Source: Escherichia coli (GTDB lineage: Bacteria > Pseudomonadota > Gammaproteobacteria > Enterobacterales > Enterobacteriaceae). Taken from it: a stretch of DNA of 64,000 nucleotides. The notes under the pieces were generated by a model. That model was not told the DNA's origin. It did no database searches and saw nothing but the letters and a program-made list of their open reading frames with translations. The stretch is from NCBI RefSeq assembly GCF_001677475.2, contig NZ_CP015229.1; one strand, 5' to 3'. Below are positions 4,665-47,703 of the stretch, one piece after another. The stretch's first letter is position 1. Each line of letters begins with the position of its first letter. Made by a program: the position numbers and the translations under genes.

Positions 4665-4760
4665 AGATTGCCTGATGCGCTATGCTTATCAGGCCTACGC
4701 AGTACCTGCAATATATTGAATCTGCAGGACTTTGTAGGCCGGATAAGGCGTTATGAACTG
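4665..4760. repeat. REP/BIME-like palindromic repeats downstream of ybiT
   Basis: gcctgatgcgctatgcttatcaggcctac and gtaggccggataaggcg match the E. coli REP consensus in opposite orientations. Confidence 0.55.
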
Positions 4761-6211: not shown

Positions 6212-6250
6212 AGCAAAAAGGAGAGAGGCCGAAGTGGTCACTTCGGCCAG
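6212..6250 (-). terminator. Rho-independent terminator downstream of ybiV
   Basis: Perfect 10-bp inverted repeat ggccgaagtg/cacttcggcc (6227-6248), followed on the minus strand by a T-rich run. Confidence 0.55.
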
Positions 6251-30718: not shown

Positions 30719-31951
30719 ATGCAAAATAAATTAGCTTCCGGTGCCAGGCTTGGACGTCAGGCGTTACTTTTCCCTCTCTGTCTGGTGCTTTACGAATTTT
30801 CAACCTATATCGGCAACGATATGATTCAACCCGGTATGTTGGCCGTGGTGGAACAATATCAGGCGGGCATTGATTGGGTTCCTACTTCGATGACCGCGTA
30901 TCTGGCGGGCGGGATGTTTTTACAATGGCTCCTGGGGCCGCTGTCGGATCGTATTGGTCGCCGTCCGGTGATGCTGGCGGGGGTGGTGTGGTTTATCATC
31001 ACCTGTCTGGCAATATTACTGGCGCAAAACATTGAACAATTCACTCTGTTGCGCTTCTTGCAGGGCATAAGCCTCTGTTTCATTGGCGCTGTGGGATACG
31101 CCGCAATTCAGGAATCCTTCGAAGAGGCGGTTTGTATCAAGATCACCGCGCTGATGGCGAACGTGGCGCTGATTGCTCCGCTACTTGGTCCGCTGGTGGG
31201 CGCGGCGTGGATCCATGTGCTGCCCTGGGAGGGGATGTTTGTTTTGTTTGCCGCATTGGCAGCGATCTCCTTTTTCGGTCTGCAACGAGCCATGCCTGAA
31301 ACCGCCACGCGTATAGGCGAGAAACTGTCGCTGAAAGAACTCGGTCGTGACTATAAGCTGGTGCTGAAGAACGGTCGCTTTGTGGCGGGGGCGCTGGCAC
31401 TGGGATTCGTTAGCCTGCCATTGCTGGCGTGGATCGCCCAGTCGCCGATTATCATCATTACCGGCGAGCAGTTGAGCAGCTATGAATATGGTTTGCTGCA
31501 AGTGCCTATTTTCGGGGCGTTAATTGCGGGTAACTTGCTGTTAGCGCGTCTGACCTCGCGCCGCACCGTACGTTCGCTGATTATTATGGGCGGCTGGCCG
31601 ATTATGATTGGTCTGTTGGTCGCTGCTGCGGCAACGGTTATCTCATCGCACGCGTATTTATGGATGACCGCCGGGTTAAGTATTTATGCTTTCGGCATTG
31701 GTCTGGCGAATGCGGGACTGGTGCGATTAACCCTGTTTGCCAGCGATATGAGTAAAGGTACGGTTTCTGCGGCGATGGGAATGCTGCAAATGCTGATCTT
31801 TACCGTCGGTATTGAAATCAGCAAACATGCCTGGCTGAACGGGGGCAACGGACTGTTTAATCTCTTCAACCTTGTCAACGGAATTTTGTGGCTGTCGCTG
31901 ATGGTTATCTTTTTAAAAGATAAACAGATGGGAAATTCTCACGAAGGGTAA
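30719..31951 (+). CDS. mdfA: Multidrug efflux MFS transporter MdfA (Cmr)
   Basis: 410-aa product from [14 protein letters not shown]; 12-TM MFS with MFS motif [11 protein letters not shown]. Confidence 0.9.
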
Positions 31952-31990
31952 AAAAATGCCTGATTGCTTTGTGCGATCAGGCATTCTCGA
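31952..31990. terminator. Bidirectional terminator between mdfA and ybjH
   Basis: aatgcctgattgctttgtgcgatcaggcatt: near-perfect inverted repeat flanked by A-run and T-rich run. Confidence 0.6.
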
Positions 31991-31991
31991 A

Positions 31992-32276
31992 TTAATGGTG
32001 ATGGTCGTCAATCTGGTGTTCGATAACCATCCCTTCACCTACGCTGGCAAGATGGCGAACATAAGGATGCGGTCGGTAAGCCGGAGCTGGCGCAGGAGCC
32101 ACATAGACGGTTTGCGGCACAGTCGCGACGCTGACCGCTTGTGGAACGCTGATTGAATCAGGAACCACAACCACTTTGTATCCACTCGGCACATCGACGG
32201 TGACATTTTGCGCCATCGCCACACCAGTAAAGCCCATTAAAAGCGCGCCCAACAGTAGACAATTTTTCATAATCAT
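31992..32276 (-). CDS. ybjH: Uncharacterised secreted protein YbjH
   Basis: 94-aa ORF with signal peptide MIMKNCLLLGALLMGFTGVAMA; synteny. Confidence 0.75.
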   Translation of the reverse strand: MIMKNCLLLGALLMGFTGVAMAQNVTVDVPSGYKVVVVPDSISVPQAVSVATVPQTVYVAPAPAPAYRPHPYVRHLASVGEGMVIEHQIDDHHH

Positions 32277-32361
32277 TTCGCCTGAAATAATGCAGCGGGT
32301 AAATTTCCGCGAATTATGCAGCCTTCATTCAGGCATTGTGTTGCCGGGCGTGCTGCCGTTT

Positions 32362-33177
32362 TTATTGGTTAAATGGCGCTTCGTGTTTAAGAACTTTATC
32401 GATCACATCCAGTACGCCTTCACGGTTATTGGAGCCTGCCCGGTATTTTGCCGCTGCGACGACCGCGCTGCCGGCATTTTCCATTGCAAAACTAAAGCCT
32501 GCCTGACGCAGCATCTCAATATCGTTACCGCCATCGCCAAAGACCACCACTTCGCTGTCGTCTATTCCCCATAATTTCTGCAGTTGGCGAAGGCCATTGG
32601 CTTTATGTACGCCGGGGATAATCAGATCGATGCTGCCGTTGCCGGTGTGGACCGGCACCATAATATCGCCGATGGCCTCATGTAATGCTTTTTGTACTTG
32701 TGGAATCAGTTCATCGGAAAGATTCAGACCAAACTTAAAGAAGATATCTTCTAAGTTGTCAAAGTTATCGACGTATTCCAGACGGTGATAATACATTTCC
32801 GCCACCGTTTTCATGGCATCGTCATATTTTTTGAGGGTATAGGCGCTATTTTTTCCGCAGGCAATAATTTCCACTTCCGGGCGCGTCAGCAAATGTTCCA
32901 CGACAGTAGCAAACGCATCCTTCGACAGCTCGCCATTAAAAACATCTTTGCCTTCGCTCACTACCCAGCCGCCGTTTTCAGCCACAAAGGCTATTTCATT
33001 AGCAATTTCCGGAAAGAAAGAGATCAACTGATAATATTGATTCCCGCTGGCGACCACAAAGCGAATGCCTTGTGCTTTCATTTGCTGATACTGAGCCATA
33101 AACCGCTCACGGTTATAGGTTTTTTGATCGCTTAAGAAAGTACCATCCATGTCTACCGCAATTAATTTAATGCTCAT
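32362..33177 (-). CDS. ybjI: HAD-superfamily Cof-type phosphatase YbjI (FMN/5-amino-6-ribitylamino-uracil phosphate phosphatase)
   Basis: 271-aa product from ATG ending at 33177; HAD motifs DMDGTFL and GDGGNDIEM; start overlaps ybjJ stop (TGATG). Confidence 0.85.
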   Translation of the reverse strand: MSIKLIAVDMDGTFLSDQKTYNRERFMAQYQQMKAQGIRFVVASGNQYYQLISFFPEIANEIAFVAENGGWVVSEGKDVFNGELSKDAFATVVEHLLTRPEVEIIACGKNSAYTLKKYDDAMKTVAEMYYHRLEYVDNFDNLEDIFFKFGLNLSDELIPQVQKALHEAIGDIMVPVHTGNGSIDLIIPGVHKANGLRQLQKLWGIDDSEVVVFGDGGNDIEMLRQAGFSFAMENAGSAVVAAAKYRAGSNNREGVLDVIDKVLKHEAPFNQ

Positions 33178-34385
33178 CAATTATTCTCCATCGCCGTCTG
33201 CGTTTTGGTATCGGGTTTGGCGACGGCTTTCGCGACAATAGCCGCGAGAATAACCAGCGCCAGTACAACCAGCATTGCACTACGTAGTCCATAATGTTCG
33301 CCGAGATAGCCCAGCAGCGGCGGCCCGACGAGGAAAGCCAGATAACCGGTCGTTGCTACTACGCTGACGCGGGTCGGTGCATCGGGGCCGGTATCGCTGG
33401 CGGCAGAAATGGTCAGCGGGAAGCCCAGCGAAGCACCCAGTCCCCAAAGTACAACAGACACCCCTGCGACCCAGGCGCTATCGACAAAAATAATCAGCCC
33501 AATACCCAACGCTCCCATTAGTGCACTGGCCCGAACCACGGCAACGCGACTGTAACGGTCGATGAACCAACCGCCGGTAAAGCGTCCAACAGTCATCCCC
33601 AGGGTAAAACCGGCATAAATCAGCGAGCCGGAAGTAGGGCTAAAACCGTGACCGTCAACCATTAATAAGGGTAACCAGTCGTTGGCAGAACCTTCGGCAA
33701 AGGCCATCGCCAGCACTACAACACCAATCAGCAGCAACTGGATATCGCGATAAAAAGGTACGCCTTTTTCACCATGCTGGGTGCCATCGGCAGCATTTTT
33801 GCCCGTACCGTCAGGGATTGCCTGAATGGCGATATAAATAGGCGCGATGCCTACCAGCGCCGCCAATAAAATGTGCACCGTTGCCGGAACGCCAAAGGCC
33901 GTCAGTGCCATCCCGATACCAGCGCCTGCCAGCGTGCCCAGGCTATAAAAACCGTGCATCATCGGCAAAACCGTCTTATTCATTTCTCGCTCAACGGCAG
34001 CACCTTCAACGTTTATCGCCACTTCCGCAGAACCAAAACTTGCCCCAAAGACGCCGAGACCAACGGCAAAGAGCAGGGGCGATGTCAGCCAGAGTGCCAG
34101 ACTTAATATCATCATCCCGATCAATGCGCAGGACATCGTGACCAGGATGACATTACGCGTCCCAAAGCGTTTCACTAACCACGCCGAGCAGAGAATACCG
34201 CTCATTGAACCGATCGACAGACCAAAGAGGACTCCGCCCATTTCAGCGATCGAAACAGAAAGAATATCGCGGATAGCAGGCGTACGGGTTGCCCAGGACG
34301 CCATTAACAGGCCCGGCAAAAAGAAGAACATAAACAGCGCCCAGGTTCGGCGTTTCAATGCATTACGTGAAGAATTTAAGGTCAT
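33177..34385 (-). CDS. ybjJ: Putative MFS transporter YbjJ
   Basis: 402-aa hydrophobic ORF; synteny. Confidence 0.85.
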
Positions 34386-34428
34386 AGATCACGTCAAAAT
34401 AAGAAGAGGGAAGACAACATTAGCAAGG

Positions 34429-34448
34429 TTGTGTACATTTGTACACAA
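34429..34448. promoter_or_regulatory. Perfect 9-2-9 palindrome in the ybjJ/rcdA divergent promoter region (candidate TetR-family operator)
   Basis: ttgtgtaca-tt-tgtacacaa read directly; lies 21 bp upstream of the rcdA start codon. Confidence 0.45.
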
Positions 34449-34468
34449 TTGCAGAGAGAGGAAATGAC

Positions 34469-35005
34469 ATGCGTCGCGCTAACGATCCGCAACGGCGAGA
34501 AAAAATTATCCAGGCCACGCTGGAGGCGGTGAAACTTTATGGAATACATGCTGTTACGCACCGCAAAATTGCTACCCTTGCCGGGGTACCGTTGGGATCG
34601 ATGACCTACTATTTTTCAGGAATTGATGAGTTGTTGCTGGAGGCGTTCAGCAGTTTTACTGAGATCATGTCCCGGCAATATCAGGCATTTTTTAGCGATG
34701 TTAGTGATGCACAGGGCGCATGCCAGGCTATCACCGATATGATATACAGCTCACAGGTTGCAACGCCGGATAACATGGAGCTGATGTACCAGCTCTACGC
34801 GCTGGCTAGCCGAAAACCGCTATTAAAAACGGTAATGCAAAACTGGATGCAGCGCAGTCAGCAAACGCTCGAACAATGGTTTGAACCCGGAACTGCCCGC
34901 GCGCTTGATGCGTTTATTGAGGGGATGACGCTGCATTTTGTCACCGACCGTAAGCCGCTATCGCGCGAGGAGATTTTGAGGATAGTTGAGAGGGTTGCAG
35001 GGTAG
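34469..35005 (+). CDS. rcdA: TetR-family transcriptional regulator RcdA (YbjK)
   Basis: 178-aa product from [21 protein letters not shown]; TetR-type N-terminal helix-turn-helix. Confidence 0.85.
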
Positions 35006-35179
35006 TAGATAAATTTTAGGCAACAAAAAACCCACCAACCTTGAACCGAAATGGCGGGGTTGATGGGCTCCACAAAATGGGGACATCAAAGAAAAGCAGT
35101 GGCACTAATTAAGACTGATGCCCTGCGGAAAAGTTCTGCGGTTGTGCAAAAAAATTTCATTTTCAGGGCAACTTCAGTT

Positions 35180-36865
35180 TTATCCTAATCCAGGCCATAC
35201 CATGACGATGATTGTCCCTGCCAGCGTCAGCAGGACGTTGGCGATTGCGTAGGTGCCCGCATAGCCCAGCGCCGGGATGTTACTGCGAGCTGTATCACTG
35301 ATGATCTCCATTGCCGGCGCGCAGGTGCGTGCGCCCATCATTGCGCCAAACAACAGTGCGCGGTTCATTCTCAATACATAAGCACCGAACAAGAAACAGA
35401 TAACCACGGGCACCAGACTGACAATCAATCCGGCAATTAACATCTGACCGCCAATCGCGCCCAGGCCGTTATTAATACCGCTACCGGCGCTCAGACCAAC
35501 GCCTGCCATAAACACCATCAAGCCGAACTCTTTCACCATGCTTAATGCACCTTGCGGAATGTAACCGAAGGTCGGGTGGTTAGCACGCATAAAGCCCAGC
35601 ATAATTCCGGCGAATAACAACCCGGCAGCGTTCCCCATGCCGAAACTGAATGTGCTGAACTGGAAGGTGATCATCCCGATCATCAGCCCAATAACAAAGA
35701 AGGCGCAGAATGCCAGCAAATCAGTGACCTGGCTGTGAATCGAGATAAAGCCGATGCGATCGGCGATGGTTTTTACGCGGCGGGCATCGCCGCTGACTTG
35801 TAATACGTCACCTTTGTTAAGCACGACGTTGTCATCTATCGGCATCTCAATCTGGCTACGAATGACGCGGTTAAGGAAGCAACCGTGATCGGTCAACTTC
35901 AGTTGTGCGAGACGTTTGCCAACGGCGTTATGGTTTTTAACGACCACTTCTTCAGTGACGATACGCATGTCGAGAAGGTCACGATCGAAAACTTCTTTAC
36001 CGTTACGGAAGCTGGGATCGAGTCGGGCATGGGCGTCGGGATAGCCTACCAACGCTATTTCATCGCCCATTTGTAGCACGGCATCACCGTCTGGATTTGC
36101 CAGAATCCCGTTACGTCGAATACGTTCAATGTAGCAGCCGGTTTGTCGATAAATACCCAGCTCACGCAGATTTTTGCCGTCGGTCCAGGCCACCAGCTCC
36201 GGGCCGACGCGGTAGGCGCGGATCACCGGTAAATAAACCTTACGGTTGGCATCAGTGTCCAGGCCACGTTCGCGGGCGATTTGCTGGGCGCTGGTCTGTA
36301 AGTCCTGATGCTGCAATTTCGGCAAGTAACGCGCACCAACAATCAAACTCACCAGACCGATTAAATAGGTTAAGGCATACCCGAGGCTCAGATTATCCAG
36401 CGCCAGTGAGAGCTGTCTGCTTTCCATGCCGGAATGACGCAGTGTATCGCCAGCACCGACCAGAACCGGTGTCGACGTCATAGAGCCTGCTAACATACCG
36501 GCCGTCAGGCCAATATCCCAGCCAAACAGCTTACCTAACCCTAAGGCGATGACCAGCGCACTGCCAACCATCACCAGTGCTAACATTAGGTAATTTTTCC
36601 CATCGCGAAAAAAAATGGAAAAAAAGTTCGGTCCGGCTTCGACCCCGACGCAGAAAATAAACAGCATAAAGCCAAGATTAAGCGCGTCGGTGTTAATGCT
36701 GAAATGTTGTTGGCCTAATAACAGCGATACGACTAAAACGCCAATGGAATTACCCAGTTGGATCGAACCAAGTCGTAATTTCCCGAGACATAGCCCAAGC
36801 GCGAGGACCACAAATAATAACAGAATGTAATTCCCATTTAACAATTCGGCGACGTTTATATTCAC
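35180..36865 (-). CDS. ybjL: Putative transporter YbjL (AAE-family permease with two TrkA-C/RCK domains)
   Basis: 561-aa ORF; duplicated membrane halves around a cytoplasmic insert; synteny. Confidence 0.85.
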
Positions 36866-46682: not shown

Positions 46683-46710
46683 AAAAGCCGCAGGTGCGGC
46701 TTTCTGAATC
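46683..46710. terminator. Bidirectional terminator between rlmC and artJ
   Basis: aaaaaagccgcaggtgcggctttctg: stem gccgca/tgcggc with flanking A-run and T-run. Confidence 0.65.
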
Positions 46711-47617: not shown

Positions 47618-47703
47618 TAGGCCGGATAAGGCGTCCACGCCGCATCCGGCACAGGCACCGTGCTGATGTCTGATGCGACGCTGGCGCGTCTTATCAGACC
47701 TAC
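47618..47703. repeat. REP/BIME palindromic repeat pair between artM and artJ
   Basis: gtaggccggataaggcgtccacgccgcatccggcac and gatgtctgatgcgacgctggcgcgtcttatcagacctac, both REP-consensus-like. Confidence 0.6.

Follow-up and report, generated by a model that had tools for sequence, protein, structure and literature searches.

TetR/tetO-type pairs share a simple layout, in which the gene of a regulator carrying a TetR_N domain lies beside the divergent gene of an MFS pump, the pump is repressed, and the short spacer holds a dyad operator that overlaps the promoters. The ybjJ-rcdA locus of Escherichia coli has the same layout, but the regulator RcdA differs from such pairs in several respects. 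Its reported effect on the rcdA promoter is activation; it shows cooperative spreading and, like H-NS, aggregates DNA; csgD and the others of its roughly 30 additional targets have single or tandem half-sites only; and no clear inducer is known. Negative autoregulation, which is typical of the TetR family without strictly defining it, is thus not what the literature describes for RcdA. EilR/eilO-EilA of Enterobacter lignolyticus ('Jungle Express') also resembles this locus in combining a TetR-family repressor with a divergent MFS pump, in conferring tolerance to imidazolium ionic liquids, and in using a palindromic operator with a 2-bp centre that is embedded in both promoters (PMC6127294). 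Yet eilO reads AAAGTTGGACACGTGTCCAACTTT, has 11-bp arms and occurs in two copies per spacer (PMC6127294), and the match of EilR (PDB 5vl9) to RcdA is weak (E = 1.5e-4) and limited to residues 5-68 in the N-terminal DNA-binding region. We considered ybjJ-rcdA as the E. coli orthologue of eilA-eilR and rejected this assignment, since the eilO sequence is unrelated and EilR is a distant paralogue; the EilR system is an analogue of RcdA, not an orthologue.

The closest described element is the RcdA box of E. coli K-12. Shimada et al. (2012, MicrobiologyOpen; PMC3535384) printed TTGTGTACAttTGTACACAA as the palindromic putative RcdA box, after genomic SELEX with purified RcdA (then called YbjK) had yielded 15 clones from the ybjJ-rcdA spacer. 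DNase I footprinting at low RcdA gave one clear protected band in this spacer, and the ybjJ-rcdA probe showed the highest RcdA-binding activity among the probes tested. The unit consensus, TTGTnnACA, is arranged as a palindrome at ybjJ-rcdA and in tandem at other targets, and RcdA binding is highly cooperative, spreads along the DNA and aggregates the complexes. The same study detected ybjJI mRNA only without RcdA and found ybjJ promoter activity to be raised in the rcdA mutant, which amounts to repression, while rcdA-lacZ activity fell markedly in the rcdA mutant, which amounts to positive autoregulation (PMC3535384). Two slips in that paper concern the origin and spelling of the element. The text places the 72-bp palindrome fragment in tfaX-appY clones and the Fig. 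1 legend places it in ybjJ-rcdA, and the palindrome is once printed in a garbled form, TTGTGACAtttGTaCACAA. We examined tfaX-appY as a source and rejected it: allowing up to three mismatches, the palindrome has no match in the K-12 MG1655 tfaX-appY region 582000-585500, so the attribution in the Fig. 1 legend is the correct one.

We analysed a 64-kb stretch of E. coli DNA, hereafter the window, in which the same element lies between ybjJ and rcdA. Gene names follow the RefSeq annotation of near-identical E. coli genomes and of MG1655. The two genes diverge from an 83-bp spacer (34386-34468). The ybjJ product, starting at 34385, has 402 residues and matches Pfam MFS_1, and the rcdA product, starting at 34469, has 178 residues and matches TetR_N (31.7 bits, cut-off 24) and TetR_C_31 (37.9 bits). 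Searched against the PDB, the latter matches the RcdA entries 7acl, 7aco and 5x5i at about E = 3e-114 (best 2.6e-114); the solved RcdA structures comprise 5x5i, 7acl, 7acm and 7aco, and the PDB entries searched include no co-crystal of RcdA with DNA. RcdA of the window differs from K-12 RcdA (7acl) only by P82Q and M172I, both outside the helix-turn-helix. Reading the plus strand, we found the perfect inverted repeat TTGTGTACA-tt-TGTACACAA at 34429-34448, with arms of 9 nt (34429-34437 and 34440-34448) that a repeat finder scores as 100% complementary across a 2-nt gap; G at 34428 and T at 34449 prevent any longer arms. The first-pass annotation, made from the letters of the window, had described just this 9-2-9 palindrome and its divergent neighbours, an MFS gene and a TetR-family gene; the sequence and the repeat finder bear out the former, and RefSeq, Pfam and PDB agree on the latter. 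Past the other end of rcdA, 17 nt beyond its stop codon, lies a convergent RybB sRNA gene (Rfam RF00110, 104 bits; 35022-35100, minus strand), in agreement with the rybB annotation of MG1655. Rfam also matches naRNA4 (78.5 bits; 47620-47700, plus strand), which by collinearity with K-12 falls between artJ and artM, and ES036 (4691-4733, minus strand), whose 41.6 bits are barely above the gathering score.

The 20 nucleotides at 34429-34448 equal the published palindrome TTGTGTACAttTGTACACAA when compared with the text of PMC3535384, and the whole spacer corresponds base for base to MG1655 887340-887422. There is thus no difference from the K-12 RcdA box at the site, in either the 20-mer or the 83-bp spacer around it, and the published experiments are directly applicable to the window. 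We conclude that the palindrome is an already known, published high-affinity RcdA operator. This answers the proposal of the first-pass annotation that the repeat is a candidate RcdA operator: the comparison it suggested, with the published RcdA box, returned an identical 20-mer that had been recovered by SELEX and footprinted with DNase I (PMC3535384). Its further proposal that the site also controls ybjJ is supported by the rise of ybjJI mRNA and promoter activity in the rcdA mutant (PMC3535384). Its expectation of TetR-style autoregulation through the dyad holds in part, in that rcdA is indeed autoregulated; the self-repression usual for TetR proteins does not hold, the published effect being positive (PMC3535384). 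The features discussed here are collected in the table.

Features of the ybjJ-rcdA locus, in window coordinates
Feature	Coordinates	Strand	Basis
ybjI, second gene of the ybjJI operon	32362-33177	-	RefSeq annotation; operon named in PMC3535384
ybjJ, MFS transporter, repressed target	33177-34385	-	RefSeq annotation, Pfam MFS_1; repression in PMC3535384
Candidate rcdA -35, aaGACA	34411-34416	+	Inferred; GACA kept in 80, 78, 78 and 80 of 80 loci
Second conserved block GACAAC-A-y-TA-g-CAAg, putative promoter elements	34413-34427		10 of 15 positions invariant in 80/80 loci
Candidate ybjJ extended -10, TGcTAATGT	34417-34425	-	Inferred from conservation
RcdA operator palindrome TTGTGTACA-tt-TGTACACAA	34429-34448		Sequence; identical 20-mer, SELEX and DNase I footprint in PMC3535384
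Invariant operator core TGTACA-TT-TGTACA, 14 bp	34432-34445		Unchanged in 80/80 loci
Candidate rcdA -10, TACATT, at the palindrome centre	34434-34439	+	Inferred; invariant in 80/80 loci
Candidate ybjJ -35, TGTACA (4/6 to TTGACA), in the right operator arm	34440-34445	-	Inferred from conservation
rcdA (ybjK), TetR-family regulator binding the palindrome	34469-35005	+	RefSeq annotation, PDB match, Pfam

Within its spacer the palindrome ends 20 nt short of the rcdA ATG at the 3' side, and 43 nt separate its other edge from the ybjJ ATG. The centres of the two arms fall at 34433 and 34444, a distance of 11 bp, and the dyad lies in the spacer to the divergent gene. Allowing up to three mismatches, the 64-kb window has a single occurrence of the 20-mer pattern, against 0.02 expected. 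Both arms match the TTGTnnACA unit (34429-34437 on the plus strand and 34440-34448 on the minus strand), and an additional overlapping match lies at 34439-34447 (plus strand); the unit by itself is at chance level, with 7 matches in the window versus 8.1 expected. The whole window holds four distinct perfect palindromes whose arms reach 9 bp or more with loops no longer than 4 nt, versus a mean of 1.7 in first-order Markov simulations. Palindromes with 9-bp arms are therefore not rare, and what makes this one significant is where it lies, how well it is conserved and what experiments on it have been published. The other three, placed by assuming collinearity with MG1655, are GGCCGAAGTGGTCACTTCGGCC between ybiU and ybiV (6227-6248), the AT-rich TTATCTTTTTAAAAGATAA within the 3' end of mdfA (31905-31923), and AAAGCCGCAGGTGCGGCTTT at the convergent rlmC/artJ junction (46684-46703), the last resembling a bidirectional terminator.

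Within E. coli the spacer is strongly conserved. Over the 5001 nt from 31545 to 36545 the window differs from MG1655 by 81 substitutions and no indels, and the 83-bp spacer is nevertheless identical; for the 2-kb ybjJ-rcdA segment (33100-35100), none of 5426 complete RefSeq E. coli genomes exceeds 98.9% identity. At least 3029 of the 5422 complete E. coli genomes compared carry exactly the spacer of the window (100% identity), and in none does the identity fall below 95%. Four variant genomes were sampled, and their changes fall only at 34428-34429 (GT to AC) or outside the palindrome. The GT-to-AC change puts C in place of the outermost left-arm T, so that the palindrome loses its outermost base pair, and this AC form, in its exact 46-nt context, is found in 1032 genomes. 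Among its carriers are Nissle, LS4 and Trh52, where the operator is an 8-2-8 dyad. A plasmid search matched only chromosome-sized records filed as plasmids, giving no sign of mobility.

We extended the comparison to the Enterobacteriaceae by a family scan with RcdA, which gave 80 species-level loci with RcdA identities from 98% down to 67%. They come from Escherichia, Citrobacter, Salmonella, Klebsiella, Raoultella, Enterobacter and Lelliottia, from Leclercia, Kluyvera, Kosakonia, Phytobacter and Pseudocitrobacter, and from others. In all 80 the core TGTACATTTGTACA is present upstream of rcdA exactly once and unchanged, while the spacer varies freely beyond 34448 on the right and beyond 34413 on the left. 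Outside the core the arms are less uniform. G34431 is retained in 79 loci, its symmetric partner C34446 in only 34 (the other 46 having T), and Watson-Crick complementarity of the two outer arm pairs is seen in 69 and 52 of the 80 loci; the identical 20-mer is found in 25 loci and a perfect 9-2-9 palindrome in 28. The operator is co-conserved with its regulator: 29 of RcdA residues 1-60 are invariant, including the stretches VTHRKIA and PLGS-TYYF in the helix-turn-helix region.

The position of the core is tied to one of the two genes. Divergence of ybjJ from rcdA is seen in 79/80 loci, the exception being truncated by a contig end, and the distance from the core to the ybjJ start codon is 45-49 nt in 70 of the 71 loci with an alignable start. 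Between the core and rcdA there are 22-26 nt in 69 loci and 56-123 nt in the remaining 11, which belong to Salmonella, the K. oxytoca group, Raoultella and others. These conservation data are our new contribution: the operator has a 14-bp invariant core, whose spacing is fixed to ybjJ and not to rcdA. In the same 11 species an unrelated insert of 30-100 nt lies between the operator and the rcdA ribosome-binding site, and the spacing on the ybjJ side is kept. Separately, Salmonella RcdA apparently starts 5 codons earlier (MKENTVRR...).

Scanning 34250-34600 with a generic promoter model gave no canonical sigma-70 match within the spacer, and the sole match, a weak one on the minus strand, lies inside rcdA (34533-34505). 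Since that scan is silent in the spacer, the candidate promoter elements listed in the table were assigned from conservation. The candidate -35 and -10 elements are spaced by 17 bp for ybjJ and by 17 bp for rcdA. In the candidate ybjJ extended -10, all 80 loci retain the T, G, T, A, G and T positions and 75 retain T at the fourth base of the hexamer; the two positions that vary are the 'n' base and the third base of the hexamer. On the rcdA side, the short distance between the palindrome and the ATG means that any sigma-70 promoter of rcdA must overlap the operator or sit upstream of it. Either arrangement predicts that RcdA represses itself, the opposite of what the published rcdA reporter shows.

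One possible, though rather doubtful, way out of this conflict is that the 35-bp block 34411-34445 holds two interdigitated and mutually exclusive divergent promoters, with a positive autoregulation that is not classical activation. The rcdA promoter may consist of the GACA -35 and the central TACATT as -10, and the ybjJ promoter of the right-hand TGTACA as -35 and TGcTAATGT as extended -10. The apparent activation of rcdA could then come about through RcdA shifting RNA polymerase between the overlapping promoters; alternatively, within the same arrangement, a TetR-family protein could activate in a MerR-like manner while bound to the promoter spacer. Such an arrangement would account for the retention of G34431 and not of C34446 and for the invariant central TT, a non-symmetric pair of bases that a -10 at the centre of the palindrome would explain.

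Three other explanations of the palindrome were weighed against its role as an RcdA operator. The repeat could form a hairpin in the 5' leader RNA of rcdA or ybjJ that affects mRNA stability or translation, and plus-strand RNA of 34420-34470 does fold at -13.5 kcal/mol (z = -4.15 versus shuffles), with the frequent change of C34446 to T still permitting a G-U pair with the conserved G34431. However, any perfect palindrome folds in this way, and the pattern of conservation is not that of a hairpin: the 14-bp core is invariant including the TT of the presumed loop, which leaves no compensatory change to be seen, while the outer pairs are often mismatched (complementary in only the 69 and 52 loci given above). 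The site has no T-run, no terminator-like site was called at 34429-34448, and Rfam has no match there, its nearest being RybB at 35022-35100. With the putative promoters placed as above, moreover, neither mRNA would hold the full palindrome, and the published protein footprint already accounts for the site (PMC3535384). We therefore consider a leader hairpin very improbable.

It is less probable still that the site is mainly the operator of another regulator, such as a CRP-like reader of TGTGA-N6-TCACA, with RcdA binding being secondary. By eye, TGTGTacatttGTACA fits the CRP half-sites at 7/10 positions, but the invariant bases are TGTACA and not the TGTGA/TCACA critical for CRP, the adjoining and co-conserved regulator gene is rcdA, and RcdA leaves its footprint exactly here at the lowest protein levels, the site being its strongest SELEX target (PMC3535384). 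That the palindrome arose by chance and lacks function might seem reasonable from its arms alone, given four palindromes with 9-bp arms in the window against the 1.7 expected by simulation. Against this stand the core kept in 80/80 loci amid a freely varying spacer, the fixed distance to ybjJ, and the published binding and regulation (PMC3535384); conservation and footprint together already refute the chance reading, and we give it a negligible probability.

Taken together, we are highly confident that the palindrome is the primary high-affinity RcdA operator, through which ybjJI is repressed and rcdA autoregulation is mediated. RcdA is listed in RegulonDB as a dimer, and a homodimer most likely occupies the site with one helix-turn-helix per TTGTGTACA arm, a stoichiometry that we infer and that fits arm centres 11 bp apart, that is, in successive major grooves. 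At higher concentrations, further RcdA spreads cooperatively from the palindrome as a nucleation site, as published. Repression of the divergent ybjJI operon by bound RcdA is likewise published, and the conservation pattern suggests that RcdA acts by promoter occlusion, covering the candidate ybjJ -35 in the right-arm TGTACA and the spacer to the extended -10. The spacing of the core and the second conserved block would fit occlusion of the candidate ybjJ promoter, and the fixed distance from operator to ybjJ agrees with it. The same palindrome mediates the autoregulation of rcdA, reported to be positive.

Loss of RcdA is published to derepress the YbjJ pump and thereby to give tolerance to ionic liquids. 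Mutations in rcdA (a missense change, an IS insertion, amber codons) recur in evolution experiments with ionic liquids; those selected under this stress are loss-of-function, and a delta-rcdA strain is strongly tolerant. In vivo, ybjJ is induced 3.2-3.7-fold by [C2mim]Cl. As to ligands, TMAO binds RcdA with a Kd of 7 mM, RegulonDB records RcdA-TMAO and RcdA-Tris as inactive conformations, and acetate is reported to raise RcdA binding to other promoters.

The finding leaves current understanding unchanged, and it means that a reading of the sequence by itself recovered a real, experimentally validated operator. The comparative data delimit this operator more tightly than the published TTGTnnACA logo, and they bring out the contrast between an operator overlapping all plausible rcdA promoters and the reported activation of rcdA. 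For the biology of E. coli, the operator controls the YbjJ pump, whose derepression gives an ionic-liquid tolerance that is useful in biofuel strains, and the palindrome serves as nucleation site for a regulator with input into csgD and the control of biofilm formation.
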